DNA of 64,000 nucleotides from Candidatus Bathyarchaeota archaeon. GTDB lineage: Archaea; Thermoproteota; Bathyarchaeia; Bathyarchaeales; Bathycorpusculaceae. The stretch lies in NCBI GenBank assembly GCA_963811105.1, contig CAWEPZ010000002.1:192001-256000 (forward strand), given 5' to 3'. Shown piece by piece: positions 35,135 through 55,518 of this stretch. The notes below the pieces were generated by a model. The model did no database searches. It was given only the letters and a program-made list of their open reading frames with translations, and was not told the origin of the DNA. A program made the translations under genes and the position numbers. Each line of letters opens with the position of its first letter. Position 1 is the first letter of the stretch.

Positions 35135-36196
35135 TTAGGAAAAATTGTAGAAGCCGAAACCGTTGCAGTAAACGATTTCTTTTGTGTCTCCCCAAATGCC
35201 AACCTGGATGCCTGAGTAGCCTCCGATTTCCCCTCCCTTGAAGTAGAAGTAAAATTGCCAGTACGGATACAGCGTCAAGGGGTCACGAGAGATTTTGCTT
35301 GGGTTGTGAGAGGTTTCATTGCGGTACGGCACCATGGTGAAGTACATTTGGTAGATTGCGTCTGACAGGTCAGGAAGCGCAACTGTCTCGTTCCTGTACT
35401 CGTTGACTATGCGAAACTCAGTGTTCTGAGCAGTCTCCAACGCCAGCTGATATGCTTCCTCAGAATTAAGCGCGCTGGGACCGCTGACACTGTAGATGCG
35501 CCAGTTATCGGTGAATGAATCAAGAACGTTGTTGCGGAACGCTACGTCCACTCTTTTCCATGTCATGTGAACACCGTTTTCAGTGTAGATCCACTGGATC
35601 CGTGTTCTGTCTGCGTCCTTTGAAACCTGAAAGTTTACGTTTCCAACAGTAACGTTCGTGGGTGAGAGCTCCTTAACGGTATTAAGGATGGTTTGCATGG
35701 GCTCAAGATATGAGTTGTTTGTGGGATACAATCGATCAGCGTATGCCTGGTATCGTTGAAGCACGGTTTTGACCTGGCTGAGTAGATCATTTGCTGGTGC
35801 CTCCGAATAGATGGGGTTGCCACGCGGAGCTTCAAAGGTGAAAAGCACTATTTGCCCGTTGTAGAGGATGCTCATTGCATGAATCTTGCTTTCGTTGGCT
35901 TCGAAATCAAAGCTGCGGATTTCCTCTTTCACGAGACCGCAAAATTCGGGCGGGTAGCGGTACGTATTTGATGGATCCTGGGCGGTATTGTAACCAGGTG
36001 GAGGTAAGGGCGAGGTCAAAATGTATTTTGTGAGGTCAAGCCCAACAACACTGGATAAGAATTCGGTCGCCTTGTCTTCAGCCGTGAGTTCTATTGAACT
36101 CTCGGGAGGCACATCAACTGTCAAGACAGCAAATGCCGCAATAACTGCAGGAGCCAAGAAAGCGAGAACAATCAGTGCAACAACTCCTCTACGCAT
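35135..36196 (-). CDS. Secreted hypothetical protein (related architecture to 56408-57553)
   Basis: Signal peptide MRRGVVALIVLAFL; TATA CTTATATC upstream; the longer ORF-track start lies inside the IS110 end. Confidence 0.75.
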   Translation of the reverse strand: MRRGVVALIVLAFLAPAVIAAFAVLTVDVPPESSIELTAEDKATEFLSSVVGLDLTKYILTSPLPPPGYNTAQDPSNTYRYPPEFCGLVKEEIRSFDFEANESKIHAMSILYNGQIVLFTFEAPRGNPIYSEAPANDLLSQVKTVLQRYQAYADRLYPTNNSYLEPMQTILNTVKELSPTNVTVGNVNFQVSKDADRTRIQWIYTENGVHMTWKRVDVAFRNNVLDSFTDNWRIYSVSGPSALNSEEAYQLALETAQNTEFRIVNEYRNETVALPDLSDAIYQMYFTMVPYRNETSHNPSKISRDPLTLYPYWQFYFYFKGGEIGGYSGIQVGIWGDTKEIVYCNGFGFYNFS

Positions 36197-36257
36197 GATT
36201 ATTCCATGCTTAACAACGGACGCCCAAGCGGATATAAGTGTTCTTGTCAAAGTTTCT

Positions 36258-36480
36258 CTTATGTAAGGAAACGATCCAAGGCCAATCCAAACAGACTTCC
36301 GACTACCTTTTTTACTCCACCTCATCCCTTCTTAAATTCCTATTATTCATGTATTTCAGACAACATTCTCTTATCAGCGAACCAAGTCGCACTACGGCTT
36401 CAGCTAACAGCCAAGGAAAACTCCATTCTTGACTAAGCAGATAAACTGCACCAGAGTTTAGAAGATATCCAAAGCTGCCC
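36258..36480 (-). ncRNA. Putative bridge/seek RNA in the IS110 3' non-coding end
   Basis: Two parallel units of hairpin + guide ending AG + AAUG: GCAG-UUUAU-CUGC-UUAGUCAAG (matches repeat A) and GCGA-CUUGGU-UCGC-UGAUAAGAG (matches the IS end ATAAG+AG). Confidence 0.55.
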
Positions 36481-36780
36481 ATCCTACTTTACCATGAATT
36501 CCTTCTCGTAAGTCCAAACAGCCCAAACAACATTCACAAGCTTACGAGCAACAATCTTAATCGCATCCCGACTATTGCCTTTCCTAACAGAAGCATCCTA
36601 AACACCTGCGCAAGATGGCCTTCAGGACAAAACATCACATGGGACCAAGCAGACTCAATAAAAATACACTTAAGCCAACAATCACCCCTAGCTTCCCGTC
36701 CAGCAAAAGAATGCTCACCCGACTGACTAATTCTCGGTACTAACTTAGCATAATGAGCAAAGCACGCTGATCTTTTTCAT
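36258..36780 (-). mobile_element. IS110/IS1111-family remnant: transposase C-terminus plus ~227-nt 3' non-coding end
   Basis: FAHYAKLVPRISQSGEH..RGDCWLKCIFIESAW..(frameshift)..AIKIVARKLVNVVWAVW (stop near 36484); the end abuts GTCAAAGTTTCT of a family A box. Confidence 0.85.
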
Positions 36781-37133
36781 CAAATGCTGGAATACAACAT
36801 CAAGATATGGAAACCAACATTCCTAGAAAACCGCCTCGGTAACCCGTTGATTTACAAGACCTTTGACCAAGTCCTCATTCCATACTTCGGTAAAACTTTA
36901 GGTGCCTATTACGGCTTAACGCGCGGCGAAAAGAGCGAACAGTTAAAGCAGGCTGTTTGGCAGCTCAACATGCCTCAAACGACTACAAGAAAGAGTCCTC
37001 GCTTTAAGCCACCTCCCTTAAGTATGTTTAACTTGCCCTTAATTTTTGCGCAAAAAAACCATGCTCAAGTCAAGTTAGGCTTCGAAAGAGTGGCAATAGA
37101 AGAAAGAAAAGTAGCACTCTGAAGCTTAACTGA

Positions 37134-41517: not shown

Positions 41518-41606
41518 CTAAAAGGGTTCTCGTCAAGATTTCTTGACTAACTTAGAAATAAACTTAGTCAAACTTTCTTGACTGATTTTTTTCGATGCCT
41601 TCTGAA
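41518..41606 (-). repeat. Orphan RRHRK tail + family A site (19-bp spacer) + TATA
   Basis: Boxes 41567-41582 and 41532-41547; AGAAGGCATCGAAAA at 41589-41603. Confidence 0.9.
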
Positions 41607-41642
41607 AAACTGTAAAGGTCACAATGGCGACGGTGGCTCTTG

Positions 41643-42227
41643 TTAATTTTGTGGGAACCCTGATGACAAGGGCACCGCACGTATATTCAGAACAGTTTTA
41701 TCCAACATTACCGTAACAACAAGACTCTTTTCAGCAAAAGAAACATCAAGACTACTCCTAATACCCGCTCCTATGACCTTAGATTCTTGGACGTGAAGAA
41801 CACCAAACTGCTGGGGCGAGGTCATCCCAACTTCATAATTCTGGTTGTCCCAAACGGTACCGTTAGATAGTACTTCAAATTTAAAAGTCAAACCTTCAAC
41901 ATCTCTAACTCCAACATTCTTGATTGTAATGGAAAAATCTTTAAACATAGCTACCCCTACTGGAACATACCAAGGCTCCGAAGTAATGTTTTCAATTGTT
42001 ACGTTATAAATTGGGTTTTGAAGTTCATGGATTTGAGTTTCCAGATTACTAACTTTAGTCTGAAGCATGTTGGTTGAGTTTTCGTAATATGTTAACTGAT
42101 TTTGAAGGTCAACGGACTGTTTCTGGGCATCGTTTATTTTTGTTTGAATAACCCATATTGAAGAAACCAAAACAGTTATGATGATTATTAATAGAATAGG
42201 AACTATTTCTTTCCGCATACCAATCAA
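41643..42227 (-). CDS. N-terminally anchored coiled-coil protein
   Basis: TM, coiled coil LQNQLTYYEN..LETQIHELQNP; paralog of 42224-42799 (shared GxLHVxESK). Confidence 0.75.
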   Translation of the reverse strand: MIGMRKEIVPILLIIIITVLVSSIWVIQTKINDAQKQSVDLQNQLTYYENSTNMLQTKVSNLETQIHELQNPIYNVTIENITSEPWYVPVGVAMFKDFSITIKNVGVRDVEGLTFKFEVLSNGTVWDNQNYEVGMTSPQQFGVLHVQESKVIGAGIRSSLDVSFAEKSLVVTVMLDKTVLNIRAVPLSSGFPQN

Positions 42228-42799
42228 GTGCCTATCACCACCGTTTGCCTATCAAGAATATTATTGTCAAGCATTAACGTGATTATCAATTTGCAGAGGG
42301 ACAATGTTTGCGTTCGGTCAATGGTGCTTGCGATTAGCTGTATATTTATGTACTTTGATTCGAGAACATGAAGGATGCCAATATTGGAATTTGCCTGAAT
42401 ACTAAATTGGTCGATATTAGTTGTGTTTCCTTCCACTTTGAAATCTAAAGTCATTCCGCCTATGCCGCTATCTCCGTAGTTTTGGAGAGATATGTTGATG
42501 AATTTGTAGTGCGGATAACCAGTTAACGGGTCTCCATGCCAAGCTCCATTTGAAACAATGGTTAGCGTTACATTGTCGGTTGGGTTTTGAAGTTGGCTAA
42601 GTTGAGTTTCCAGATTGTTTGCTTGAGTTTGAAGGGTATCTGTCATGTTTTGATAGTATGCGATTTGGCTTTGTAGGTTGCTTACTTGCTTCTGGTTTTC
42701 GGCCATTTGATTTCCAAGGAACAATGCGGATGAAGTAAGGACAAGAGTAACTATGATAAGTGAAGTTATCAATTTCCTGCGGGTTGGAAATCTACTCAT
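42224..42799 (-). CDS. N-terminally anchored coiled-coil protein (paralog)
   Basis: TM, LQSQIAYYQN..LETQLSQLQNP, GILHVLESK. Confidence 0.75.
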   Translation of the reverse strand: MSRFPTRRKLITSLIIVTLVLTSSALFLGNQMAENQKQVSNLQSQIAYYQNMTDTLQTQANNLETQLSQLQNPTDNVTLTIVSNGAWHGDPLTGYPHYKFINISLQNYGDSGIGGMTLDFKVEGNTTNIDQFSIQANSNIGILHVLESKYINIQLIASTIDRTQTLSLCKLIITLMLDNNILDRQTVVIGT

Positions 42800-42822
42800 A
42801 ATTACTCTTGCGATATTTTGGC

Positions 42823-42877
42823 AATAAAAGGCTATTCATCAAACAATCTTGACTAAGGACAGTCAAATTTTCTTGAC
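42823..42877 (-). repeat. Family A site (8-bp spacer) plus TATA 23 nt before ATG 42799
   Basis: Plus strand ATCAAACAATCTTGAC-TAAGGACA-GTCAAATTTTCTTGAC. Confidence 0.88.
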
Positions 42878-43051
42878 TTGGACCACTCTAATGTTTGCCC
42901 TTGAATTTTATATCTAAGTTTGCATGTTCCAGCTTGCTTGGAGGGTCAAAGGCGAAAAAGTACCATAAACAGGTACTAAGAAATAAGATCTACAATAAAT
43001 TTAAAGAAAACTTTTGCTTAGTCTTTAAGGTTTCTGATTATTGATTAGCAT

Positions 43052-43969
43052 TGTTCTATCTAGAAAATGGGCTACACTTTGTCTTTGAGGTATATTTCTG
43101 CTGGCGTTAAATAATTTATTCCTTCATGAGGCCTTGTATAGTTGTAGTAGCGGATGAAACTCCAGTGCTCATTGAACAGGTGTGATTCCGTCTGGTATGC
43201 TTTATGGAAAGCTTCAATTTTGCCACAGGTGGTAGGTCTACGAACACTTGCCATAATATGCTCAATACCCAGCTCAATGCAATGTCTATTAAACGCAGAA
43301 ATTTCCCCTCTTGCAGGCGTAAACTGTATTCCCTGATCCGTAAGAATCTGCTTAGGAGTACCATACTTTTTCACTGCTCTATCAAGAAGCATCATTGCAT
43401 TCTCTCCAGTTGGACTCCAAATCTTAACTGATCCAGTGATAAACCTTGAATGGTCATCTTGGTAACTAATCATCCAATAGTCATCATTACACAGCTTGAA
43501 ATCCGCTTGCCAAAGGCTGTTATTGTGCTCTCTTTGGAAACGCTTAGTTCCCCAGGTCTTTCTAGGAGAAGTTACAGGATGGTTTAGGCCAGCTTCACAG
43601 ATGATGCGGTAAACTTGATTATGGTCTATCGTACAGCCTTTAAGTTTAAGGCAACCGGCGATTTTCTTAGGTCCCCATTCATAACGCTTGCGTAGTTTGA
43701 TTACTTTATCTTTGATAAAATCGTCCGGTTCATAACCAATTGGACGACCTTTAGGTTTCTCTTCTAGACCCTTCCAACCCTGGGTTTGGTACCGGTTCCA
43801 CCAGCGGTAAAACATCTTCCTGTCAATTTGAGCTTCGGAGCAGATGTCAGTAACCGATCTACCTTCCAGCTTTCGTTTGATGATCCATTTTCTAAGCTTT
43901 TCCCAATCTCTATCCAACCAAGCACTCCCCCGATTTTGGAAGAGTGTAGCCTATTTAAAAGATAGAACA
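43052..43969 (-). mobile_element. IS481-family insertion sequence with 16-bp target duplication
   Basis: 26-bp imperfect inverted repeats with TGT..ACA ends; GATTATTGATTAGCAT at 43036-43051 and 43970-43985. Confidence 0.92.
43072..43917 (-). CDS. IS481-family DDE transposase (rve core)
   Basis: HTH, WGPKKI, WQADFK, DDHSRF, LTDQG, GKIEAFH, YNYTRPH. Confidence 0.93.
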   Translation of the reverse strand: MDRDWEKLRKWIIKRKLEGRSVTDICSEAQIDRKMFYRWWNRYQTQGWKGLEEKPKGRPIGYEPDDFIKDKVIKLRKRYEWGPKKIAGCLKLKGCTIDHNQVYRIICEAGLNHPVTSPRKTWGTKRFQREHNNSLWQADFKLCNDDYWMISYQDDHSRFITGSVKIWSPTGENAMMLLDRAVKKYGTPKQILTDQGIQFTPARGEISAFNRHCIELGIEHIMASVRRPTTCGKIEAFHKAYQTESHLFNEHWSFIRYYNYTRPHEGINYLTPAEIYLKDKV

Positions 43970-44312
43970 GATTATTGATTAGCATATTAATTTTGTCAAC
44001 CCACTCAAGAATTATTGATCTTTCACGCTCTGTAGCATTAACCACTTCCCAGTTGCCTATTATAGGCTTTGAAAAAGAAGCAGCAAATACCTGCTTAGTT
44101 GAAAGTCTATGGTTAAATCAAAAATCCTTTCTTTCACCATTTAAAAACTCAATAGAAAGGTAATACCCACCAACCAAGCCTCCAAAAGACTTCTTCTCAA
44201 TTAAAGAGGCTTGCTTCATTTCCTTAATAAAATACTCTTTCTTGTCTTTAGAAACAATCCTATCTTCTAGTAACTTATTTCCATCCTTTTCCAATATTAC
44301 GCTTTGAATCAT
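43970..44312 (-). pseudogene. Hypothetical gene with an internal TGA (44118-44120) and IS481 inserted at its 3' end
   Basis: Frame continues through the stop: RKDF*FNHRLST...INMLINN, ending QKP* beyond the IS. Confidence 0.55.
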
Positions 44313-44378
44313 TTTAGATTACAGCCATTTCTTATTCTCTGCCTAGAGCTAATGAGTTTAATTACCTTTCAGATAGCT

Positions 44379-45413
44379 TCAGTTTACTAATAATATATGC
44401 TTCTTAATTCTCACAATTAATGTAGTAATTAAAATACTTACCAGAATGGGTATGATTGCTATTATTGGATACTCGGGCACTGTTGGACTAGGACTTGATG
44501 TAGATGTAGTTTGAGATTGATTTGTGTTAACTGAGAAATAGACTGTATTAACCCAAGTTGTTTTATTTAATAGATTTGTGCCATCCCAGAGTTCTTCTTT
44601 TACTCCAATGCTTAGCTTGTGTGAACCATCACTTAGATTGGAAAGGGGAACAGAACCATTAAAGTAATTTATGGGTCCTCCAAAAGTTGCCATATCTATT
44701 TTCCATAGTAGAAAGCCTAAGTATTTTTCATCTAATGTGTAGTTTAAAGTTTCAAGCAGTTCATTGGGGCAAGAGAATGAACCATTGCAATATACAACAT
44801 TTGAAGTGTATGTTGTATTTAGAGGAGAATAAAGGATAACTCCTGAAGGGAAAGTAATAGATTGGTTTGTTTCATCTTGAGCTAAAGCTGAAGGACTTGG
44901 TGAAAATGAATTGATATTGAAGGATACAGTTAGAAAAGCACAGCCAATAGGTATTCCATAAGATATGTAATTCTCTTCAGTTCTTAACCAAACTGTAATG
45001 TTATGGTAACCTTGTGACAAACCAGTCAGGGTTGTATTGCCACTATAGAGAGTGCTTCCTACTTTAGATAAAGGAACAGATGGGCTAGCTGGAAATTGAT
45101 AAGCAGGATTGGTATTGTTAACTAAATCAACCAAGTGATCAATATTGTAATCCATGGCGATCCCATGCCAGATAAAATAATCAAATAATTGCCCATGAAA
45201 AAGCTCTAAGGGTGGATATTCACTTTGTATAGTGTAGGCAAAGTATAGGTTGTCTTGATTGTAGGTTTTGCTTGTAGGGGATTGTATGGATATAGTTGCT
45301 TTTGGATTACCAAGAATTATAGAGTTGCCATTTGAGTAAGCAGCCCTTACTGCTCCAATAAGTGATACTCCAATAAGAATAGAAACAATTATGGCAACTA
45401 AGATAGCTTTCAT
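44379..45413 (-). CDS. Two-Ig-domain surface protein with PEY (PEF-like) tail
   Basis: Signal peptide, LSQGYHNITV / LSDGSHKL repeats, PTVPEYP + TM + RIKKH. Confidence 0.8.
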   Translation of the reverse strand: MKAILVAIIVSILIGVSLIGAVRAAYSNGNSIILGNPKATISIQSPTSKTYNQDNLYFAYTIQSEYPPLELFHGQLFDYFIWHGIAMDYNIDHLVDLVNNTNPAYQFPASPSVPLSKVGSTLYSGNTTLTGLSQGYHNITVWLRTEENYISYGIPIGCAFLTVSFNINSFSPSPSALAQDETNQSITFPSGVILYSPLNTTYTSNVVYCNGSFSCPNELLETLNYTLDEKYLGFLLWKIDMATFGGPINYFNGSVPLSNLSDGSHKLSIGVKEELWDGTNLLNKTTWVNTVYFSVNTNQSQTTSTSSPSPTVPEYPIIAIIPILVSILITTLIVRIKKHILLVN

Positions 45414-45955
45414 CCTTGCTTTTTCCTTCTACTAAAAAGTAGCACTAATGCTGATAGGGTTAAAACCAATACTGCAATTATTGATAAGATAGGTATAGCC
45501 CAAAAAGGAAGAGAAAGAGGTTTAACCACTTGTTTGATGGCTGTTTCAATTGCAAAAGAGACAGTTGCATTAAAAGGAATTATCTCAGAGGCATGTTTTG
45601 CTTCGCTATGAACAAAAACACTATGAATTCCATCTGATAAGTTGCTAAGAGTAGTTTTTCCATTGCAATAGATACCACATGTAATGGTATAGGGTAATGG
45701 TTTGTCTTGTTGTCCATCTAAGCTATAGTTCAATGAATTAATGATGTCAAAAGGAGGAAATGTATCATATCTATTCAAACTAACATTCAGAAGTATATTT
45801 GATGAATGATATACTTGGTTTTGAGAAGGAGAAAATATGGTAATTGTCGGGGTATAATATGGCTTAAAATTGGCTTCAGCTAAAGTAGCAAAACTTGTTC
45901 CAACTAATGATGTGAGTGCTAACAGTAGAATCAAAACTATTTTTTCTTTCTTCAT
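45410..45955 (-). CDS. Single Ig-like domain surface protein with TM anchor
   Basis: Signal peptide AEAN, YSLDG..LSDGIHS, TM + FSRRKK. Confidence 0.8.
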   Translation of the reverse strand: MKKEKIVLILLLALTSLVGTSFATLAEANFKPYYTPTITIFSPSQNQVYHSSNILLNVSLNRYDTFPPFDIINSLNYSLDGQQDKPLPYTITCGIYCNGKTTLSNLSDGIHSVFVHSEAKHASEIIPFNATVSFAIETAIKQVVKPLSLPFWAIPILSIIAVLVLTLSALVLLFSRRKKQG

Positions 45956-45976
45956 CTTACCAATTCTACTGCTGTA

Positions 45977-46040
45977 ACTTTATCCTTAAAAGATTTGCAG
46001 TAAAGATTCCTTGACTAAACTCAGTCAAACTTTCTTGACT
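45977..46040 (-). repeat. Family A site plus promoter, 63/64 nt identical to 54520-54583
   Basis: ACTTTATCCTTAAAAGATTTGCAGTAAAGATTCCTTGACTAAACTCAGTCAAACTTTCTTGACT. Confidence 0.93.
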
Positions 46041-46174
46041 TATTTTTCTATTACCAAACATTTCTTTGTAGATAGTTCTTCTGACAATTGTTGCTTTTTC
46101 AGAGTCCTTGAAATAGGTTTAAATGTTGAGATATAAAGCAGATTGTAATAAATGTAATTTGAGCGGAGAAGTAA

Positions 46175-46600
46175 TTGTCAGAAGCTCAGAAAAACATTTC
46201 CAGTAAGAAGAATAAGCTTACATTGTTTACTTTTACATTAACTGGCGCCTTTCTCATACTTACAGGGACTCCATTAGCAGGATCAGGGGTCACTAATTCT
46301 GCTGGTTACTCATATCACCCTTATCTTCCATTGGGAATGCCGTTAATAATTTTAGGTTTAGCCATGATAGCTTTTGCAGCATTGCAAAGAATTAGTCAGT
46401 TTCAAGCGCAAGTAATCGTTGGATTTTGCGGACAGATACTTCTCGGAATGGTTATTTTTATGATTCCAACTCTTTATTGGCCGAGTCCTTTTTCACCGTT
46501 TAATCTCCATACCTACTCAATAGTTCTTGGATTGATAGGAATAGCTCTTTCAATAGAAAGTTTAATTGTGATAAGCAAAACAAAAAGAGCGCAGCAATAA
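46175..46600 (+). CDS. Four-TM hypothetical membrane protein
   Basis: Four hydrophobic segments; own TATA (ATATAAAG) upstream; opposite orientation to the array. Confidence 0.65.
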   Translation: MSEAQKNISSKKNKLTLFTFTLTGAFLILTGTPLAGSGVTNSAGYSYHPYLPLGMPLIILGLAMIAFAALQRISQFQAQVIVGFCGQILLGMVIFMIPTLYWPSPFSPFNLHTYSIVLGLIGIALSIESLIVISKTKRAQQ

Positions 46601-46707
46601 AAAAGCAAATACCTTACCTAGACGATCTCTGAGGGGTATGGTCTACCGCTAAAAATGTCAAAATTGGCAGTTACTAAGATGAAATTGTTGCAAGAAGTTA
46701 TCGAAAT

Positions 46708-48074
46708 CTAGTCAGAATTTCTTGATGATTCTTTCATTGTCAAAGATTGCTTTGTAGTCTTTTTAGCTATAATCAAAGCAATTGGAATGGCGAGTAGTAA
46801 GGGTAGGATTGTCAACCAAGAAAACTCAGGAACGGCAGGTGTAGAGGTTGGTATGACTGTTGGTATAGATGCGTTATAGTCAGGTATTGCCTGTAAATTT
46901 GGCGCGGTTAAGAAGGGAATGAACGTAACATTACCTAAGTTGAAGTCATTCTTGAAGTCGTGGATCATTCGGCTGATTGTTTGTTGGTCAGTTGTTCCCC
47001 ACCAGTTTTGGGAAGCATCCACATCATTTGGGGCATTAACCGTTAAGTTGACTCCGCCCTCAATGTTATTTTGTTTGATTGTAACATGGGCTTCTTCATC
47101 TACAATTATTCCTGGGCCGCTAAGAGTGTTATTTTGGATTTGCACATTAGGGGTTCCGATTCCGCCTATTAATTTGACGCTTGACACGGTGCAACCCGAA
47201 ATTACGTTGTTTGAAATTAACGCGTTACCAGCAACCACAATTCCATAAGAAGTGTAAAGTGGTCCCTCTAGCCTTCCAACTTCTGGCGCAATCAAACCTG
47301 TAATGTTGTTGTTTGAAATAACCATTGTACCCTTTTCAAAACCCAAGTTTATCGCCGCTCCACCGTTCCACCCACCAGCCGCCAAAGAGATAGTATTGTT
47401 GTTTATTATCGGCGAACCTTCAGACGAATCAGCGTAAGGATTAGTGCGCACTCCATAATTAATAATATTTGACGAAATTATTGGTGAACCTCCAATGCTT
47501 AATACCCAAATTTCGTTTCCTTCGATTTGAGGTGTACCAGCCTCAACTTGGATGTCAGGAAAATTCTTCTGACCTAAAATTATTGGCGATCCCCCGTCAA
47601 TGTCTATCGTGCTCACGTTTACGTTGTTAGCTATTTTTGTTGAAGAATTTTTTATGGCAATAATCGCATTATTACTTGAAGAAGAAAAGATTGCGTTTTC
47701 GATTATACTGCCTTTTTCAGTTTGTTCGTTCCAAGATATACTTGCAGCGGTGAAAGTTATGCCTCCGCTGTCAAAGTAAATTGGGTTAGTAGTAGTACCA
47801 ACTGCAACAAAGGTACCGTTCACTTGTATGTAGTAATCATTCAGGTGCACTGTAACTCCGGCTTCAACTGTTAAGGTTACTCCACTAGTTATCAAGATAG
47901 GTCCATCAAGGATGTAAGGACTGTAGATTTGTTTCCATGTAGTGTCCGTGGTCATGACATTGTAACGTGTGTTCCAATTTGAGCTGAAACAAGCCCTCCT
48001 GCGTTAATAATGAATAGACTTAAGCATGTAAGAGGAAGAACTAGCAATAATACGAATTTCTTGTTAAAGCCCAT
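46708..48074 (-). pseudogene. Beta-helix surface protein with PEF tail; frameshift near 47960 separates the signal peptide
   Basis: MGFNKKFVLLLVLPL..AQIGTHVT (start 48074) is out of frame with TTDTTW..NWWG..VPEFSWL; degenerate family A site at 46711-46745. Confidence 0.78.
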
Positions 48075-48096
48075 AGTCATTAAGCGTTGTCAAGCA

Positions 48097-48150
48097 GATA
48101 AAAAGTTGTTCGTTAAATTTTCTTGACTAAGATTAGTCAAGATCTTTGAC
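48097..48150 (-). repeat. Family A site (8-bp spacer) plus TATA
   Basis: Plus strand GTTAAATTTTCTTGAC-TAAGATTA-GTCAAGATCTTTGAC. Confidence 0.88.
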
Positions 48151-48194
48151 TATTTATTATTTCTCGGTGATTAGGTTTGTTATGGGTGTGGAAA

Positions 48195-48404
48195 CTAAGA
48201 AGGGTTCTTCTTTTCGTTAATATTCACTTTGTTGAGAGCATCTAAAATTATGAGGTAAAGCCCAAGTCCAAGCAGAATAAACGCAAAAAATCCTGAAAGG
48301 AGTTTGATAGGAATAAGGGTCTCGACACTCACCAACGACCAAATCAAAAATATTCCACCAAAGCCAAAGCAAAGTATCCCAAAACGCGCAAGATTAACAT
48401 TCAT
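48195..48404 (-). CDS. Small two-TM membrane protein
   Basis: Two hydrophobic helices; GAGGA RBS; bracketed by family A sites. Confidence 0.6.
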   Translation of the reverse strand: MNVNLARFGILCFGFGGIFLIWSLVSVETLIPIKLLSGFFAFILLGLGLYLIILDALNKVNINEKKNPS

Positions 48405-48504
48405 TTGAAATTAATTCCTCAATTCTTGATATGGATTAACCTCGCTTAAAAGATTTTAGAAACAACAAATAATCGTTAATTTGGATTTATATTTAACGCT
48501 TACC

Positions 48505-48556
48505 GTCAAGAATTCTTGACTAATTCTAATTAGTGGTTAGTCAAAAGTTTCTTGAC
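48505..48556 (-). repeat. Family A site (19-bp spacer) directly after an RSHRKT gene
   Basis: Perfect palindrome GTCAAGAATTCTTGAC at 48505-48520; second box 48540-48556, 4 nt from the stop at 48561. Confidence 0.92.
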
Positions 48557-48560
48557 CTGA

Positions 48561-49247
48561 TTATTTTGGAGTTTTTCGATGGCTTCTAAACAGCAGTAAA
48601 GCACCAATAACAATCGCCAAGATTGCAGCTGCTGCAATCGCTAAAATATACGCTGTAGGAAAAGCAGCTCTTTCGTTAATATTTGAATTACTTGGAGTCG
48701 TAAAAGATTGAGTTGGTGTAATTGTTGGAGAAGCGGTGTCTATGGTAAAGGTAACTGTGCTATTGTTGTTCATATAATAGTTGGATGGCACTCCTTGGGC
48801 TTGATGAGCGTCTTGATAATAGCTTACGCCGTATACAAAAACTTGGAAAGTGTGACTGCCCTCAGATAAATTAGTTAGTGTACCTTGAAGAGTAATTGGG
48901 TCTTTGCTGTTAAGACTTTGAAGTGAATCAAATTCCTTTTCAGCGATGGTAACTTTGGGGTTACTGTCCAAGTAGTACTCAACTGAAAACAATTGCCCAT
49001 TATAACCTCCATAATCAAACCATGAAGAAGGCTTCTGCACCACAAGAGAGTACGGTATATCCTTTGTATTGTAGATAGTACCGTTTTCTGGTAATGTAAC
49101 TGTAAGTTTAGGCAAACTTGTGTCAGGCGTTGAAGGACCAACATAAGAAAATGTAGCTGGGTTTCCAACAGCTAACTCTACTGCCGATATACTAATAATA
49201 GCTAACATTAAAGACGTTAATGAAATTATCAACATTGTTTTTTTCAT
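48561..49247 (-). CDS. Ig-like surface protein with RSHRKT anchor
   Basis: Signal peptide + GNP, LSEGSHTFQV, Thr/Ser linker, TM + FRSHRKTPK. Confidence 0.82.
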   Translation of the reverse strand: MKKTMLIISLTSLMLAIISISAVELAVGNPATFSYVGPSTPDTSLPKLTVTLPENGTIYNTKDIPYSLVVQKPSSWFDYGGYNGQLFSVEYYLDSNPKVTIAEKEFDSLQSLNSKDPITLQGTLTNLSEGSHTFQVFVYGVSYYQDAHQAQGVPSNYYMNNNSTVTFTIDTASPTITPTQSFTTPSNSNINERAAFPTAYILAIAAAAILAIVIGALLLFRSHRKTPK

Positions 49248-49276
49248 ATACTTTACCAACTTCCAACTTTTTGAGG

Positions 49277-49795
49277 TCACATGACTCCTTGAGCTTGTTG
49301 TTGATAGATTTGACCACTATCTGCGGATACTGTAACCTTATAGCCGATTATCCAGTACTGAACACCAGTAACATCAGTTCTCTCGTATGCTCCGAATACA
49401 TCCCAAACAGGTCCAATTCCTCTCAATTCATAAAACACTGCATCTACGACTGTTACTGTTCTATTGTTTTCTTTTGCGTATTGGTTGATATAGGGCATGG
49501 CAACGTTGACAGCTTGTTCCTTTGCAATTAAAGACTCTTGTTGCGATGTAGTTGGCGTAGGTGAAGGCGATTGTTGGGTAAAGTTTTCTGTGGGTGTTTC
49601 GATTACAGGCACTTTTGATAAAGACTGGTTCATGGTGAATTGTGAGGAAAGCAAAGTGAAAGAGATTCCAAATATCAGAGTTGCAGCAAGTACGACAACA
49701 ATTGGCGTAGAATAAGTTTTCAGTTTTGTAGGTAGGCGATCAGGCGGTTGTGGACACCAATTTCTTAATCCTTTGATTCTTTTACGCATACCCAT
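49277..49795 (-). CDS. Single-pass membrane protein coupled to an HTH regulator
   Basis: Basic N-terminus KRIKGLRNWCPQPP, TM, PepSY-like C-terminus (VSADSGQI). Confidence 0.65.
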   Translation of the reverse strand: MGMRKRIKGLRNWCPQPPDRLPTKLKTYSTPIVVVLAATLIFGISFTLLSSQFTMNQSLSKVPVIETPTENFTQQSPSPTPTTSQQESLIAKEQAVNVAMPYINQYAKENNRTVTVVDAVFYELRGIGPVWDVFGAYERTDVTGVQYWIIGYKVTVSADSGQIYQQQAQGVM

Positions 49796-49799
49796 TTTC

Positions 49800-50273
49800 T
49801 TATTCTCCCACTATTTTTGCAAACAATGCCTCTGCAAGTTTGGACGGCAAAATTTTGCTTGTATCATCAAGAATTAGGAAGTTGCGGTCTTTTGCTTCGA
49901 CAAGCAGGGTTTCTCTGCAGGTTTGGAGTTTGCTGCATTTTTCGCAGTCGCCCTCATGTTTGTACCAAACTTGAACTCCATTTTTGGCTGAAAAAGTGAT
50001 GAACGCTTTAGTTTTGAAGTGGGAACTGTAGCCGAGTAAGAAGCCTTTGGTTGGGTCTACGGTTTGGATTTCGATCTTGTTTATTTTCGCTGTTTCCGCT
50101 AAGGCTTCTCCAATTTTGACATTTGCGGTATCGATGGCTTTATGGACTGTTTGCCGAGTGACGTTTAGTTTTCTTGCGATTTTTGCTTCTTGGAGTCCGC
50201 TGCTTTTTAAGTCCCAGATTATTTTTTGCTTTGATGTTAAGTATCCTAGGCTCAGCGTCATGTTGGCTCTCAT
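49800..50273 (-). CDS. HTH transcriptional regulator with C-terminal Cys motif
   Basis: LTSKQKIIW..IARKLNVTRQTVHK HTH; HEGDCEKCSKLQTC. Confidence 0.8.
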   Translation of the reverse strand: MRANMTLSLGYLTSKQKIIWDLKSSGLQEAKIARKLNVTRQTVHKAIDTANVKIGEALAETAKINKIEIQTVDPTKGFLLGYSSHFKTKAFITFSAKNGVQVWYKHEGDCEKCSKLQTCRETLLVEAKDRNFLILDDTSKILPSKLAEALFAKIVGE

Positions 50274-50333
50274 GTAAGCTATACAAGACTTACATAGTAA
50301 GTATATGGCTCCAAATATTTATATTTTTCTGAA

Positions 50334-50480
50334 TTAGCGAAGCAGGAATAGGTTAATCAAATTTTCTTGACTGATTCTTTCAGTGTCAAACATTTCCTTG
50401 TGTCTCTTTCTAACGGTCGCCAATGCAATTGGTATTGTGAGTAGTATGGGTAGGATTGTTAACCAAGAAAACTCAGGAAG
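50334..50480 (-). pseudogene. Orphan PEF tail running into a degenerate family A site
   Basis: PEFSWLTILPILLTIPIALATVRKR out of frame directly after the RRHRKTAKPS* gene; boxes at 50356-50371 and 50385-50400. Confidence 0.8.
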
Positions 50481-51783
50481 GCTTAGCGGTTTTTCGATGC
50501 CTTCTATTAAGCAGCAAAAAGCCAATAGCTATTAACGTTACTAAAACTATGGCAATTATTGTAATCGTTTGGGCAGAAATTTGGTTCACCGGAGTAGCCA
50601 CTGGCTGAGTTACTGTGAAATTGGCTGTTTGAGTTGCCATATTGCCAAAGGTGTCATTGGCGTAAATGGCAATGCTATGTGTGCCGCTGGTAACGTTTGC
50701 AACGGTAAAGTTGCCTGCTACAGTAACGTTCTGTTGTCCATCCAGAGAATAACCAATCCAGAAAAGAGGCTTATCAGTGCTAAAATCAAAAGGCAAATTG
50801 GAAGAAGTGAATGTTTGGTTATCTGGCAGTAGCAATTCAACGGTTGGCTTAGTTGTTCTGTAAAGGTAAGAGGTGTAGTTGAAAGGTGACATGAGCGGAT
50901 AATGGTCTTTAATCAGGGCAACAATTACATATGATTCATTGCCTATTCCTGAATCATCAATCATTTTGGCATTTGGATATTTGTTCTGGTAGTCACTCCA
51001 ATAGTTTCCGCCTGAAGGGTAACCATCATCCCAAATGTTATTTGAACCTATTGAGTAAACTTGTTGGGAGTTATTTATGAAATTATTATGGTAAATTTTA
51101 TTGTAAGAAGTGCTTTCAAAAAGTGCAATTCCCGAAGTCGCTAAGACAATGGGATTTGAGCTATTCTTTACGGTATTTTCAAGAATTGTGTTGTTTTTGG
51201 TTAGGAATAATCGAATGCCATGATAGTTTTTATCTAATATATTTCTCTTTATTGTGTTTTGTCCGCCGCCTTCAATGTAGATTCCAGCGGTAAACTGATC
51301 AAGTGAAAGTATGCCGTTTCCAGTGTCGGAAATGGTGTTGTTTTCTACGTTAATATTGGAGCAACTGCTAAGGTAAACTCCCATGGAGCTTCCTGTAATG
51401 ATGAAGTTTTTTACGGTCACATTTGAGGTATAAGAGACCCCTGGCACTGGGTCTAACCCTTCTGCTGGATATACTGGAGGACTTATTTTTATGCCGCCAT
51501 TACCGCTCTCGTCAGAACCGCCAATGATTGAGTGTCCATTTCCATCAAGCACGGCATTGCTTTTTTGAATGGTTAAGCTTCCGCGTATATCTCCGGTGAG
51601 GGAATAGGTGTTTCCTGTTTGCTGAATAGGAGCCGTCGCTGGAGTTATTGTTCCATCGCTGCTAATGTTGTAACTGGTGTATCCGTTGATTTCTCCAGCA
51701 CTTGGTTGAATGCAAACTACAGAGCCAACAAAAACGAGGACAAGAAATAACGTGAAAAGAGCATTACCCTTGATTTTTGCCAT
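50473..51783 (-). CDS. NosD/beta-helix surface protein with RRHRKT anchor
   Basis: ISSDGTITP..LDGNGHSI, WDDGYPSGGNYWSDY, Ig-like domain, TM + NRRHRKTA. Confidence 0.88.
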   Translation of the reverse strand: MAKIKGNALFTLFLVLVFVGSVVCIQPSAGEINGYTSYNISSDGTITPATAPIQQTGNTYSLTGDIRGSLTIQKSNAVLDGNGHSIIGGSDESGNGGIKISPPVYPAEGLDPVPGVSYTSNVTVKNFIITGSSMGVYLSSCSNINVENNTISDTGNGILSLDQFTAGIYIEGGGQNTIKRNILDKNYHGIRLFLTKNNTILENTVKNSSNPIVLATSGIALFESTSYNKIYHNNFINNSQQVYSIGSNNIWDDGYPSGGNYWSDYQNKYPNAKMIDDSGIGNESYVIVALIKDHYPLMSPFNYTSYLYRTTKPTVELLLPDNQTFTSSNLPFDFSTDKPLFWIGYSLDGQQNVTVAGNFTVANVTSGTHSIAIYANDTFGNMATQTANFTVTQPVATPVNQISAQTITIIAIVLVTLIAIGFLLLNRRHRKTAKPS

Positions 51784-51806
51784 AACTCTATTTTCAATTA
51801 GGTTCG

Positions 51807-51861
51807 AATAAAAGGTTTGCAGTTAAACAATCTTGACTGAGCTTAGTCAAACTTTCTTGAC
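51807..51861 (-). repeat. Family A site (8-bp spacer) plus TATA 23 nt before ATG 51783
   Basis: Plus strand GTTAAACAATCTTGAC-TGAGCTTA-GTCAAACTTTCTTGAC. Confidence 0.9.
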
Positions 51862-51999
51862 GTAATTGGATGCTTATTTTGTGGAATTGATGCAAGAGCA
51901 AGCTCTCTGTCGAAAACCCTTTGGCTGGAACCTTCATATTGAAAACATAGCTTGCCTATATTTTTTTGTCTCGAAATTATTTTTTTTAATTGTCTTTTC

Positions 52000-52344
52000 T
52001 TATTTCTCAAAAGTTTCCAAAAGTTCTTCTAGCAACATTTTGACTTTGGGAAGACTAAGCTTTGCCATTTTCCAAAGCTTGTCAGGTTTTACCGTATGGT
52101 ATTCATGGATATGTTTGTTTCTTATATCATTGAGGATCCGCCAAGGAATTTGAGGATTATTTTCCTGTACAGACTTTGGAATTTTGTCAACCGCTTCACC
52201 TATTATCAAAACGTCGTATGCAACTGAATTTATTTTTTCATAGTTATTTGAAAAAGCCTCAAAACTGATATCTTTGGTCGATTTCTCAACTTCATTAATG
52301 GCATTTATCATGTCATCTAAGTATACTTTGAAATCTTTGTTCAA
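52000..52344 (-). CDS. HEPN ribonuclease toxin (DUF86/HepT-like)
   Basis: YLDDM, IIGEA, IPW, RNKHIHEY (Rx4-6H). Confidence 0.9.
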   Translation of the reverse strand: MNKDFKVYLDDMINAINEVEKSTKDISFEAFSNNYEKINSVAYDVLIIGEAVDKIPKSVQENNPQIPWRILNDIRNKHIHEYHTVKPDKLWKMAKLSLPKVKMLLEELLETFEK

Positions 52345-52640
52345 ACTTTTATTGCCTCTTCAAGTATCGGGCCTTTCAAACGGGGTTTTAAAGCGGTCTT
52401 TTCAATCAAATCAACATCCACACCTAATTCATCTTTGAGAAAAAGACGCAGTTCAATAAATTTGAAGAGATCAACATTGTTTGGTTCAATAAAAGTTACT
52501 AAAACATCCAAATCACTTTTTTCTGTCGCTTCCCCTCTAACGTAAGAACCAAAAAGTTCGATGACATCTACTGAAAAATTCTCTTTAAGAACGGGATTTA
52601 AAACCTTTAGTCGACGTTTTATTTCTTTTAGTGACTTCAT
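52341..52640 (-). CDS. Minimal nucleotidyltransferase antitoxin (MntA-like)
   Basis: LFGSYVRGEATEKSDLDVLV; overlaps the HEPN gene by 4 nt. Confidence 0.9.
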   Translation of the reverse strand: MKSLKEIKRRLKVLNPVLKENFSVDVIELFGSYVRGEATEKSDLDVLVTFIEPNNVDLFKFIELRLFLKDELGVDVDLIEKTALKPRLKGPILEEAIKV

Positions 52641-52759
52641 TTTCAAATATTTCTATGAAGAATTAATATAAAGACTTTTGCAGCATTTCTAAGCGTTATC
52701 TGGATCATTGATAACCACATTACCAACGGCTCAAAACAATTTTCACAGTCAAACTTTCT

Positions 52760-52895
52760 CTTATGTAAGGAAACGATCCAAGGCAACTCCAAACAGACTT
52801 CCGACTACCTTTTACTCCATTTCATCCACACTTAAATTTCTTTCACCTATGTATTTCAGTCAACATTCTGTTATCAGCGAACCAAGTCGCCTACG
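52760..52895 (-). mobile_element. Second relic of the IS110 3' non-coding end, at the same position in a family A box
   Basis: CTTATGTAAGGAAACGATCCAAGGC...TTATCAGCGAACCAAGTCGC homologous to 36258-36395; preceded by GTCAAACTTTCT (52748-52759). Confidence 0.85.
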
Positions 52896-53365
52896 CCATT
52901 GATTGTCAATTAGGGAAGCGGGAATTCTGGCAAATGGCCACGTAAAACGTCGCCGTGGACCTTAGCGACGAAACCCATCCGCTGCATCGCAAACATAAAC
53001 AGGATATCTGGTGTAACGCATCGATTGAATTTAAAACGGTAATTACTCTCAAAGACACATCTTTTTATTAACACGCAGCTGGTACCCGCCATAACCCAGC
53101 CGTTAAGGATCTTGCCCTCAACAGCGTTTAGTGGTAAATACCAAACAGTCATGTTTTCATCTATGAAGCCTAGAATTAAGCCTTGGCCGTTATGTCGACG
53201 CACAAACCCACAAGCAATATCAACATTTAAGCCGAGTAACTTCTGGATAGAAATGAATTAGGACTGTAGTCAATCAAACCTGGAGCCAAAGGAATTACTC
53301 ACGCTCAATAGGAAATAAAGTACTTCCAAAAGCTAAGACCTACATTTCACTCCGCAGATGAGTAC

Positions 53366-53420
53366 CTTGATAAAGTTAAGTTTATCAAGCTTTTCATTTA
53401 AAATTTAGTTTATGCTTTTC
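53366..53420 (-). repeat. Repeat family B copy with a perfect 9-6-9 palindrome
   Basis: CTTGATAAA-GTTAAG-TTTATCAAG at 53366-53389, just after the RRHRKTINQA* gene. Confidence 0.9.
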
Positions 53421-53421
53421 T

Positions 53422-54498: not shown

Positions 54499-54519
54499 AT
54501 TACCTAATTTATTGCTGCT

Positions 54520-54583
54520 ACTTTATCCTTAAAAGATTTGCAGTAAAGATTCCTTGACTAAACTTAGTCAAACTTTCTTGACT
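54520..54583 (-). repeat. Family A site plus promoter (near-identical to 45977-46040)
   Basis: GTAAAGATTCCTTGAC-TAAACTTA-GTCAAACTTTCTTGAC. Confidence 0.93.
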
Positions 54584-54690
54584 AAGTTGTGATAACAGCT
54601 AAAAACGATTGGCAAGTTTTTTGCAGAAAAAAGCTAATATTTGCAAAGAAACAAAATAAGAAGAGAAACTGATGTCTCTGCCCGTGCAGG

Positions 54691-55104: not shown

Positions 55105-55306
55105 CGCGGTCTTCCTCGGTAAATGGCTTAATTTGCCCTCGAGCGGCTCCATATGCACTTTCTAAAACTACTTTGCGTTGTTTTTTTATTAGTAACTGTA
55201 TTGTTTCATCAAGACTTTCAGCTTTCAGTCTTTTCCGAGTGTTTTCAAGGCTTTCAGCGGTTCTTTTTGAAACTCGAATTGTGGTGGCTTCGGTCAATAG
55301 TATCAC
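55088..55306 (-). CDS. vapB: VapB-type (RHH-like) antitoxin
   Basis: TTIRVSKRT..SLDETIQLLI; overlaps vapC. Confidence 0.8.
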   Translation of the reverse strand: MILLTEATTIRVSKRTAESLENTRKRLKAESLDETIQLLIKKQRKVVLESAYGAARGQIKPFTEEDRGEDRN

Positions 55307-55482: not shown

Positions 55483-55518
55483 AACTACCCGCTAAAAGAA
55501 ACACAATAGAAACTTTGC

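Follow-up and report, generated by a model that had tools for sequence, protein, structure and literature searches.

A probable remnant of an IS1111-type, RNA-guided insertion sequence at a recurrent box in a Candidatus Bathyarchaeota archaeon

ISPpu9 and IS621 insert in REP sequences, and IS1111-attC elements insert in integron attC sites. The excerpts of Siddiquee et al. 2024 (PMC11187229) define the IS1111 group by a long non-coding region downstream of the transposase gene, a short left end, subterminal inverted repeats of 7-17 bp and a transposase of 330-350 aa with the motif GL-P----S(t)G. In the IS1111 seekRNA described in the same excerpts, the segment complementary to the top strand lies 5' of the one complementary to the bottom strand. 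We analysed a 64,000-nt stretch of a Candidatus Bathyarchaeota genome (hereafter the window; contig CAWEPZ010000002.1, positions 192,001 to 256,000). Positions 36256-36761 (minus strand) are, with high probability, best explained as the decayed right-hand 40% of an IS1111-type element of the IS110 family whose right end contains a bridge (seek) RNA. The parts of the remnant and its junction are as follows.

36256..36761, minus strand: IS1111-type (IS110 family) remnant, with blastn identity of 89% to locus L050 and 88% to locus L031
36484..36761, minus strand: transposase C-terminal pseudogene fragment, part of Transposase_20, with the finger G-L-x-P-x4-S-G as LVPRISQSG
36256..36483, minus strand: 3' non-coding right end (RE), 228 nt, intact
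36261..36268, minus strand: right-end arm of the subterminal inverted repeat, CCTTACAT; the left-end arm, ATGTAAAG, is missing from the window
36256-36262, minus strand: the element's own end, ATAAGAG
36256..36257, strand not assigned: core dinucleotide, CT on the plus strand and AG in transposase sense, present at both junctions of full-length relatives
36246..36257, plus strand: retained half box GTCAAAGTTTCT, a short distance upstream of the TATA-like CTTATAT and the gene with its start at 36196 (minus strand)

The remnant equals the final 506 nt of a 1289-nt element (positions 781-1289 of L050), and the first 780 nt are missing. The IS110 transposase C-terminus that the first-pass annotation had reported on the minus strand is indeed present, as evidenced by the match of the pre-deletion part of the fragment to Pfam PF02371 Transposase_20 (E 2.6e-5, 25 bits, cut-off 21.3). 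The minus-strand frame reads ...YAKLVPRISQSGEH... and continues, past a 1-nt deletion near 36596 that frameshifts the fragment, as ...IKIVARKLVNVVWAVWTYEKEFMVK up to the TAG stop codon at 36486-36484. Measured from this TAG, the non-coding end is 228 nt long, as the annotation's figure of about 227 nt had indicated. Its coordinates for the hairpins, the 9-mers, the element end and the half box proved exact on the sequence, but its remnant limit of 36780 had to be moved to about 36761, because full-element homology begins there and 36758-36975 is host-gene DNA, conserved among same-genus genomes. The window copy has no catalytic domain. It is 5'-truncated, frameshifted and dead, unable to move by itself.

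Full-length copies, whose recovery and flank tabulation had been proposed as a check, were obtained from relatives; the assembly itself yielded none. The relatives occur in Bathyarchaeia genomes and metagenomes and also in Aenigmatarchaeota and Hadarchaeum MAGs. Intact ones measure 1.28-1.30 kb and comprise a left end of about 65 nt, a DEDD/Ser transposase of 329-332 aa and a right end of about 225 nt (201-239 nt across 33 elements). The left end begins with AG followed by ACGGGATGTAAAGG, and the right end terminates in CTTACATARG followed by AG. These ends were found in three genomes first and then at further loci; the end anatomy covers 14 genome loci and 80 of 155 metagenome relatives.

The transposases of L031 and L050 carry PF01548 (DEDD_Tnp_IS110) followed by PF02371 (Transposase_20), and that of L031 passes NCBIfam NF033542 'IS110 family RNA-guided transposase' with 194.5 bits (cut-off 140). 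The closest solved structures are IS621 and ISCro4, at E values of about 1e-7. KTDxVD and GLxPRxxxSG align with IS621, AGLVPxVxQSG is present in the transposase alignment (A1), and D11, E57, D94, D97 and S253 are invariant in it; we take these four acidic residues and the Ser of the SG finger to be the IS621 catalytic residues. Both Pfam domains, the NF033542 match and the conserved D/E/D/D and Ser place the relatives in the IS110 family. Their probable placement in the IS1111 group rests on anatomy (a long non-coding region downstream of the gene and a short left end), on the size and motif of the transposase and on the guide order described below. The subterminal inverted repeat is 6 bp when perfect and needs a 1-nt gap to reach about 8 bp, compared with the 7-17 bp of the IS1111 definition. 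In 33 of 34 elements, ATGTAA lies at left-end positions 8-13, and 27 of 34 have it at positions 6-11 of the reverse-complemented right end; it is absent from the 25 longest of the 27 inverted repeats in L050.

The insertion site is a recurrent box. When up to 3 mismatches are allowed, GTCAAAGTTTCTTGACTAA matches 12 times in the window, where shuffles predict 0.01, and 48 times genome-wide. The box is a real, conserved host site, found in 20 of the 121 family genomes searched. It is a 16-19-bp palindrome-like dyad, TTAGTCA-AG-AAAnTTTGAC, and the dyad motif can also be written GTCAAR-N-TTTCTTGAC. Boxes often come two together, immediately 5' of TATA-like motifs and gene starts, and look like promoter-proximal dyads. 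Five full-length relatives (L031, L034, L037, L050 and L051) are inserted in TnnGTCA-AG-AAAnnTTGAC, and a sixth, L041, shows this at its left junction only. The half of the box that is missing from the window copy, previously postulated from the window alone, was seen at the left junctions of all six. It was also seen in the window's own genome, where the left-end remnants C6:24356 and C13:219505 adjoin TTAGTCAAG and CTAGTCAAG, i.e. (T/C)TAGTCAAG. The box was hit repeatedly by one insertion-sequence lineage, and box-targeting is limited to one sublineage, the window copy included. The annotation had proposed an element specialised on a cassette site. Specialisation on the box holds for that sublineage, whereas the family overall is not specialised on it; the boxes look promoter-proximal, and a cassette role for them would be conjectural.

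The predicted RNA architecture in the relatives consists of two modules, RTG-hairpin-LTG and RDG-hairpin-LDG, where RTG and LTG are the right and left target guides and RDG and LDG the right and left donor guides. The corresponding parts of the window copy are listed here.

36362..36479, minus strand: bridge/seekRNA core, comprising helices P1, P2, hp1, P3 and hp2 and two guide loops
36450..36457, minus strand: right target guide region (RTG), ACTCTGGT; AAACTCT with upstream AA
36437..36449, minus strand: hp1, target-loop capping hairpin GCAGTTTATCTGC (GCAG-TTTAT-CTGC), with 9 and 2 compensatory cells
36428..36434, minus strand: left target guide (LTG), AGTCA plus AG, the same letters as left flank and core in the relatives inserted in the box
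36428-36436, minus strand: the 9-mer first proposed as target guide, TTAGTCAAG, followed by AATG
36391..36402, minus strand: donor-loop 5' strand TGAAGCCGTAGT (RDG), whose CCGT is able to base-pair with ACGG at the start of the left end; of the four guides, this one is the weakest
36377..36390, minus strand: hp2, donor-loop capping hairpin GCGACTTGGTTCGC (GCGA-CTTGGT-TCGC), invariant across the 33 sequences of alignment A2
36368..36374, minus strand: left donor guide (LDG), ATAAG plus AG, identical to the element's final 7 nt
36368-36376, minus strand: the 9-mer first proposed as donor guide, TGATAAGAG, followed by AATG
36331..36337, minus strand: conserved ATTTAAG after a purine-rich stretch, its columns near-invariant in A2

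RNAalifold on A2, an alignment of 33 right ends, gave five helices, with both-side changes in 12 of 26 pairs. The paired cells amounted to 96.6%, compared with 33-57% when the partners were slid by 1-3 columns, and none of 500 shuffles reached the observed value on any measure. These five helices with compensatory changes form the structured RNA with separate target- and donor-binding loops that characterizes such systems, and the window copy retains 25 of the 26 consensus base pairs of the core. The helices are rich in G-U pairs, so that the fold is specific to the transposase-sense strand. The hairpin hp2 occurs as the variant GCGG...CCGC in some relatives. Folded singly, the window RNA was no more stable than shuffles (z = 0.07), and hp1 was the only part of the consensus reproduced in its minimum-energy fold; therefore, only the comparative structure was relied on. 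Scanning 36150-36850 against Rfam 15 gave no match at E up to 1. Of the listed sequencing runs that contain the stretch, none is an RNA run; 20 entries contain small shares of it as DNA contigs. The conserved ATTTAAG may be an outward-facing archaeal TATA/BRE. The two parallel units of hairpin, guide and AAUG that the first-pass annotation had described are conserved in the relatives, and the folding, alignment and guide-target covariation it had suggested as checks revealed helices with compensatory changes and guides that covary. Two further guides, which it had not described, lie 5' of each hairpin; RTG is well supported and RDG weakly.

Covariation between guides and DNA was determined from 74 loci (L030-L103), 51 of which were parsed by a pattern widened for the GCGG...CCGC form of hp2; the other 23 were left out of all counts. 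The top mutual-information pairs (n = 30) joined RNA columns 64-68 with left-flank positions -7 to -3, at a same-sense identity of 0.90-1.00. In the same set, column 35 was joined with right-flank position +1 (Watson-Crick 1.00) and column 32 with +4 (0.90). The columns complementary to the right flank (31-35) precede those identical to the left flank (64-68), which sets the guide order.

For LTG, the 5 variable nt were scored over 29 unique guide-flank pairs from 43 elements, after L071, L076 and L085 had also been dropped for doubtful left-end calls. Twenty pairs matched at 5/5, seven at 4/5, one at 3/5 and one at 1/5; the mean match was 4.55 of 5 against 1.54 in mismatched pairs, a difference reached in 0 of 20000 permutations. 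RTG was scored only on the 5 nt adjoining the core, with two offsets allowed, because the box-targeting group has an extra G or A before CT. Its complementarity to the right flank averaged 4.08 over 37 unique pairs, against 2.24 in mismatched ones (0/20000 permutations), and the fit was poor (3 of 5 or fewer) in 9 of the 37, the L075/L094/L095 group included. A fixed register in which RTG also pairs with the core holds in some elements (L030, L036, L038, L068 and L070) and fails in the box-targeting group. The window RTG is altered relative to L050 and L031; by manual reading, only 5 of 7 positions fit its own right flank.

The second guide had been proposed to equal the element's own right end plus core, and the relatives agree. 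In all 43 elements with enough sequence, the LDG 7-mer is found again 40-200 nt further downstream, across 7 different 7-mers, whereas 7-mers of other types occur in 2 of 258 off-diagonal cells. LDG is identical to the right-end terminus in 34 of 35 elements. RDG showed one clean co-change with the left-end start, GCCAT/ATGGG (3/3, probably a single lineage), and in the divergent elements with left end ACGGC, which carry GCCAT, pairing is not improved. Thus, covariation with DNA is strongly supported for LTG, RTG and LDG and weakly supported for RDG with the left end.

The earlier claim of a 9-nt guide was upheld in that the 9-mer is identical to the left flank plus core. Its extent has to be reduced, since only 5 variable nt and AG covary and the first two letters are scaffold-like; the effective guide appears to be 5 nt plus the AG core. 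These two letters are also what speaks for a match by coincidence or by copying of a box fragment into the non-coding end, as they do not covary and scaffold composition explains their match, and the window copy alone is a single observation. By hand arithmetic, the chance of a given 9-mer in about 228 nt on two strands is about 0.002, and the decisive support is comparative. The annotation had named full-length copies at unrelated sites as evidence against its reading. Most relatives do aim elsewhere, and their guides are changed correspondingly: there are 26 distinct 5-nt LTG guides, most of them aimed at sites other than the box, and the permutations given above never reached their agreement with the flanks. 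Moreover, the RNA after TTAGTCAAG runs on as AATGGAG and not as the other half of the box. We consider coincidence or copying scarcely credible.

Covariation alone does not separate RNA-DNA pairing from a DNA-level mechanism. Recognition could in principle depend on contacts between protein and DNA, or on DNA-DNA pairing in which the right end itself takes part, with the flank-like segments as DNA signals or recombination relics; paired DNA segments would give guide-flank covariation too, the listed sequencing runs showed no transcript, and the single-sequence fold is not significant. However, the helices around the guides keep pairing by compensatory changes and contain many G-U pairs, which argues for a strand-specific RNA and not for duplex DNA. 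The guide order also agrees with IS1111 seekRNAs, and the proteins belong to a family in which RNA guidance has been demonstrated experimentally in the systems excerpted from PMC11208160 and PMC11187229. We therefore regard recognition at the DNA level as very unlikely. The reading as an archaeal RNA-guided insertion sequence, as first annotated, appears supported by the conserved RNA helices together with the guide-DNA covariation.

Under this RNA-guided reading, the right end would encode the bridge (seek) RNA in transposase sense as two modules. In module 1, a long stem (P1 and P2) would close an internal loop capped by a 4-bp hairpin. On the 3' strand of this loop, LTG has the sequence of the AG core and of the 5 nt that precede it on the left of the insertion point; being identical to the left flank plus AG, it would pair with the bottom strand. 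Module 2, the donor module, would follow the same plan, with LDG corresponding to the element's last 5 nt plus AG, and with CCGT of RDG able to pair with the left-end ACGG. If it works like IS621 and the seekRNA elements of the IS1111 group, the element would leave its site as a circle with its ends joined RE-AG-LE. The RNA would then keep this circle junction together with a target of 5+2+5 bp, and strand exchange by the transposase would take place at the AG (CT) core. Element anatomy, helices with compensatory changes, guide-DNA covariation and insertion in the box are shown by the sequences; RNA production, transposase binding and the direction of recombination by the RNA are inferred.

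The assembly carries 13 element fragments and zero full copies. Of the seven copies that keep the right-end terminus in this genome, five adjoin AAAnnTTGAC. The window contains a second copy:

52758..52895, minus strand: the right end's last ~140 nt (hp2 to terminus), adjoining AAAGTTTGAC and fused upstream to a repeated gene fragment

Four 150-nt right-end tails were considered as MITEs made of left end plus right end. This was ruled out because their upstream 260 nt are a repeated gene-family fragment that is also found without the tail.

Pfam family and DNA searches of the assembly found fragments only, with no full-length copy or intact transposase; the Pfam matches were four to PF02371, all broken, and one to PF01548. 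The box-hitting lineage thus appears extinct in this assembly. The remnant might nevertheless not be inert, if its RNA gene supplied a box-directed bridge RNA in trans to a transposase missed by the assembly or had been co-opted by the host. The RNA part (25/26 pairs) is much better preserved than the gene, and several right-end tails persist in the genome. The assembly consists of 15 contigs and is estimated to be 96.65% complete, and repeats often remain unassembled. There is also the precedent of ISPpu9 in the excerpts of PMC12288879, where small-RNA modules of IS110 elements can spread independently. On the other hand, the searches gave no full-length transposase, and the RTG has changed relative to L050 and L031. 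We consider such residual activity improbable and prefer the reading as a dead copy.

With these elements, bridge/seekRNA programming in archaea has a worked example from nature, in which guides and sites co-change in dozens of elements and define, without experiment, both the code register (5 nt + AG + 5 nt) and the RNA scaffold. The small archaeal orthologues are candidate programmable recombinases. A broader reading, which we hold as doubtful, would join these observations into a compact (~1.28 kb, 330 aa) IS1111-like bridge recombinase clade that extends over archaeal phyla and whose targets were changed in nature at least 26 times via a 5+2+5-bp code. One sublineage of it would have specialised on paired operator-like dyads upstream of promoters and would act as a surface-protein expression switch and not as a neutral passenger. 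If this were true, several dyad-bearing promoters would belong to surface-protein genes, insertions would uncouple promoters from their regulator, and the conserved outward TATA-like promoter of the right end might drive the downstream gene. Among the papers examined, we found none on IS110/IS1111 elements of Bathyarchaeia; the clade may already be included in the supplementary tables that accompany PMC11208160 and the preprint 10.64898/2026.10.21.760802.

The element is an archaeal addition to the known RNA-guided IS110/IS1111 systems and not a new kind of system. With the IS1111 seekRNA elements (ISEc11, ISPa11 and ISKpn4), as they appear in the excerpts of PMC11187229, it shares a DEDD transposase of ~330 aa followed downstream by the long non-coding region, the motif G-L-x-P-x4-S-G, a putative subterminal inverted repeat and lineage-specific targets. 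It differs in its archaeal hosts and its very short subterminal repeat, and it is known here from sequence alone. The IS621 bridge RNA, in the excerpts of Durrant et al. 2024 (PMC11208160; structures 8wt6 and others), likewise has one target loop and one donor loop. In each loop the left guide has the sequence of the top strand, core included, and the right guide complements that strand; a CT/AG core and guides of similar length are also common to both. In contrast to IS621 as given there, the RNA here is encoded at the 3' instead of the 5' end, right and left guides follow each other in the opposite order in each loop, the capping hairpins are as short as 4 bp, and the right guides do not generally pair with the core; the similarity of IS621 to the relatives' protein is remote (E 1.7e-7). 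Finally, the REP- and attC-inserting IS110 elements resemble the present one in that their landing site, safe and abundant, is a palindrome-like host repeat in many copies, at which remnants and partial modules pile up, but the landing site here is neither REP nor attC but a paired 16-19-bp dyad upstream of archaeal TATA-like motifs.

Translation of the minus strand at 36200-36850 gave a transposase C-terminus (...HYAKLVPRISQSGEHSFAGREARGDCWLK...). The reading frame shifts after the HYAKLVPRISQSGEHSFAGREARGDCWLK segment, continues to ...RDAIKIVARKLVNVVWAVWTYEKEFMVK and a stop codon (36486-36484), and is followed by non-coding DNA. The segment before the frameshift matched Pfam Transposase_20 (E 2.6e-5). 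The non-coding end measured 228 nt, close to the 227 nt or so of the first-pass annotation, whose positions for both hairpins, the 9-mers, the AAUGs, the terminal ATAAGAG and the half box GTCAAAGTTTCT were exact. By DNA comparison, window 36761-36256 corresponded to positions 781-1289 of a full-length relative of 1289 nt (L050) at 89% identity, with a 1-nt deletion near 36596 in the window copy. Therefore, the first 780 nt, including the entire catalytic domain, are missing. A plus-strand host gene occupies the DNA past 36761; same-genus genomes align to it only over 36758-36975, and their reading frame extends beyond. The ORF adjoining the remnant (36784-37122, plus strand) is likewise 5'-truncated: same-genus genomes conserve a longer version of the gene, and their homology ends at 36758, the point at which the element is cut. 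Given that element and gene are cut at the same point, a single deletion seems to have taken away the beginning of the neighboring gene together with the 5' portion of the element. The remnant lies upstream of a gene starting at 36196, in a box, a repeated host dyad around an AG core (TnnGTCA-AG-AAAnnTTGAC). Its right target guide, AAACTCT, has a single change relative to the AAACTTT of L050 and, by reading of the sequence, fits its own flank at 5/7 positions. The window's representative of the element is a dead copy.

We searched the whole assembly (3.49 Mb, 15 contigs; window, C2:192001-256000). The 3' end of the element was repeated at eight places by DNA search, L050 as query returned 13 pieces (longest, 510 nt), and Pfam searches returned one DEDD piece and four broken matches to Transposase_20. 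Neither the Pfam searches nor the DNA search with L050 found an intact copy in the 15 contigs. The right terminus is retained in seven copies, of which five adjoin AAAnnTTGAC (C2:228246, C2:244748, C9:352558, C4:448 and C6:22929) and two do not (C9:16075 and C11:452037). The half of the box postulated to be missing was recovered directly before the left-end remnants C6:24356 (TTAGTCAAG) and C13:219505 (CTAGTCAAG). C11:451559-452035 (plus strand) is a MITE-like internal-deletion derivative of ~480 bp that joins left-end positions 1-90 to 893-1289 and retains the RNA region in full, its guide (TGTTATAAG) being a different one. Four composite copies, 85-90% alike (window 52758-53170, minus strand; C9:352558; C4:448; C6:22929), fuse a repeated gene fragment of ~260-340 nt (MTVWYLPLNAVEGKILSGW...HGDVLCGHLPEFPLP) to the terminal ~140 nt of the right end. 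The joint falls inside the 5' strand of the donor loop (GTAG), and the homology of the composites stops at the box. The gene fragment also occurs at least seven times without the right-end tail.

The genome contains 48 boxes, mostly paired 25-35 nt apart, with CCTTTTAT-like TATA motifs within about 10 nt on the gene-facing side. By reading of the window, most boxed intergenic sites in 41532-58351 lie ~30-80 nt upstream of a minus-strand ORF start, and those near 48112 and 48505 have no nearby ORF of at least 70 aa. Several of the genes preceded by a box in this region are NosD/beta-helix or PQQ-like. The box GTCAAAnTTTCTTGACTAA occurs in window 41532-58351 and also in C11:610772-641036, C12 and C2:257084-257126. 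A search of 121 family genomes found the pattern GTCAARNTTTCTTGAC in 20, representing 12 of 70 genera, at most 48 times per genome; a reversed control pattern was found in none of these 121. We read the box as an operator-like dyad proximal to promoters, apparently part of an operator and promoter module shared between genes; it may also act in cassette recombination. Situated between boxed genes, a 281-aa ORF (43072-43917, minus strand) encodes HTH and rve integrase-core domains, as in an IS3/IS481-like transposase.

Of 201 same-family genomes searched at the DNA level, four matched the element (G197, G070, G187 and G010), and three of these four carry open genes of 329-332 aa; the other 10 matching relatives aligned only to the host-gene part of the query. 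An alignment of their transposases (A1) led to 14 loci from species genomes, by record titles mostly Bathyarchaeia/Bathyarchaeota MAGs with one Aenigmatarchaeota and one Hadarchaeum, and 80 of 155 relatives on metagenome contigs were taken in. The relatives' transposases carry PF01548 and PF02371, match NF033542 (IS110 family RNA-guided transposase) and show distant resemblance to IS621 and ISCro4. The elements begin with ACGGGATGTAAAGG directly after AG and finish with CTTACATARG directly before AG. Loci L038, L043, L074, L078 and L081 show 57-70% protein identity, and relatives at this distance share the two-module RNA with matching guides of their own. In L038 (Aenigmatarchaeota MAG), the left target guide (CAGATAG), right target guide (CAAAAATCT) and left donor guide (ATAAAAG) all fit its flanks; the contig of L043, from a Hadarchaeum MAG, lacks the right end. 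These five loci suggest that the family is spread across archaeal phyla.

The right ends of 33 elements, including the window's, aligned well (alignment A2), and RNAalifold gave the following consensus structure.

A2 columns 8-19 with 82-95: P1, long basal stem
A2 columns 24-27 with 74-77: P2, helix
A2 columns 40-43 with 56-59: hp1, capping hairpin
A2 columns 96-98 with 138-140: P3, helix of 3 bp
A2 columns 111-114 with 122-125: hp2, capping hairpin

Compensatory changes occurred in 12 of the 26 consensus pairs. Paired cells amounted to 96.6% on the consensus structure vs. 33-57% with the 3' partners slid, and none of 500 shuffles reached the observed pairing values. The frequent G-U pairs are compatible with the transposase-sense strand only; hp2 is uninformative either way because it is invariant. 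The window copy keeps 25 of the 26 pairs. Folded singly, its RNA showed no gain over shuffles (z = 0.07), and of the consensus helices its minimum-energy fold contained hp1 alone.

In each module, a small hairpin caps an internal loop. Across 30 elements, the highest mutual information linked columns 64-68 to left-flank positions -7 to -3 (same-sense identity, 0.90-1.00). For the right-flank pairs that also ranked highest, Watson-Crick agreement was 1.00 for column 35 with +1, 0.90 for column 32 with +4, 0.83 for column 34 with +3 and 0.57 for column 31 with +5. A widened parsing pattern read 51 of 74 loci (L030-L103). For the left target guide, 43 elements gave 29 unique guide-flank pairs with 26 distinct 5-nt guides, matching at 5/5 positions in 20, 4/5 in 7, 3/5 in 1 and 1/5 in 1 (mean 4.55 vs. 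1.54 in mismatched pairs). For the right target guide, 37 unique pairs matched at 5/5 in 20, 4/5 in 8 and three or fewer in 9 (mean 4.08 vs. 2.24). Both target guides track their flanks, each mean being reached by 0 of 20000 permutations. The proposed 9-nt guide holds for 5 + 2 informative letters, the remainder being uninformative. The last 7 nt of the left donor guide recur 40-200 nt downstream, at the terminus, in 43/43 elements with enough sequence, in seven types (ATAAGAG, ATAGGAG, ATAAAAG, ATACGAG, ATAGAAG, ACAGAAG and AGAAGAG); types belonging to other elements were present in 2 of 258 cells. In the first set of elements, the left donor guide was identical to the terminus in 34/35. The right donor guide is the weak point of the assignment: CCGT can pair with ACGG, GCCAT accompanies ATGGG in 3/3 elements, which look like one lineage, and divergent elements follow no clean rule. 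Without exception, the core reads AG in the sense of the transposase and CT on the opposite strand.

Five full-length relatives (L031, L034, L037, L050 and L051) lie within TnnGTCA-AG-AAAnnTTGAC, L041 shows the box at its left junction only, and L047, L086 and L088 occupy the variant TGTG(T/C)CA-AG-AAATCTTTAC. In each of these insertions, the guides match the site. Other lineages occupy different sites, some of them A-rich, and carry different guides, so box targeting belongs to one sublineage, the one closest to the window copy (88-89% identity).

Two further features mark the element ends. Within the first ~65 nt (L030-L098), a hairpin (CCTCCGAT-loop-ATCGGAGG) is predicted to sequester the GGAGG immediately preceding the start codon. 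The hairpin loop starts with AAGCC(G/A)T, the motif of the donor loop 5' strand, and L065 and L070 have ATGCC at both places; the shared motif may point to autoregulation or to a binding partner in common. In the right end, GGATTTAAG is nearly invariant, about 75-85 nt from the terminus (A2 columns ~165-175; window 36331-36337, minus strand), with GAGGTG after it. This motif is a possible archaeal TATA box facing outward; transcription from it would enter the flanking gene in the integrated element, or the left end once a circle has formed.

RNA guidance in the IS110 family, the 3' location of the IS1111 RNA and the targeting of repeated palindromes are already published (PMC11208160, PMC11187229 and PMC12288879). 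Two further reports describe a catalog of 662 archaeal IS110 recombinases (10.1101/2024.06.21.599552) and large-scale mining of bridge RNA variants in bacterial and archaeal genomes (10.64898/2026.10.21.760802). A literature search of main texts found no paper on the Bathyarchaeia clade of this element, which natural sequence covariation makes a well documented putative RNA-guided system. The element shows the defining features of an IS110-family transposase and the majority of the IS1111-group ones, the subterminal repeat being borderline. Its guides are arranged as in the IS621 definition of a bridge RNA (PMC11208160): the left is identical to the top strand and the right complementary to it, core included. 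The right guide precedes the left, the order given for IS1111 seekRNAs by Siddiquee et al. (PMC11187229).
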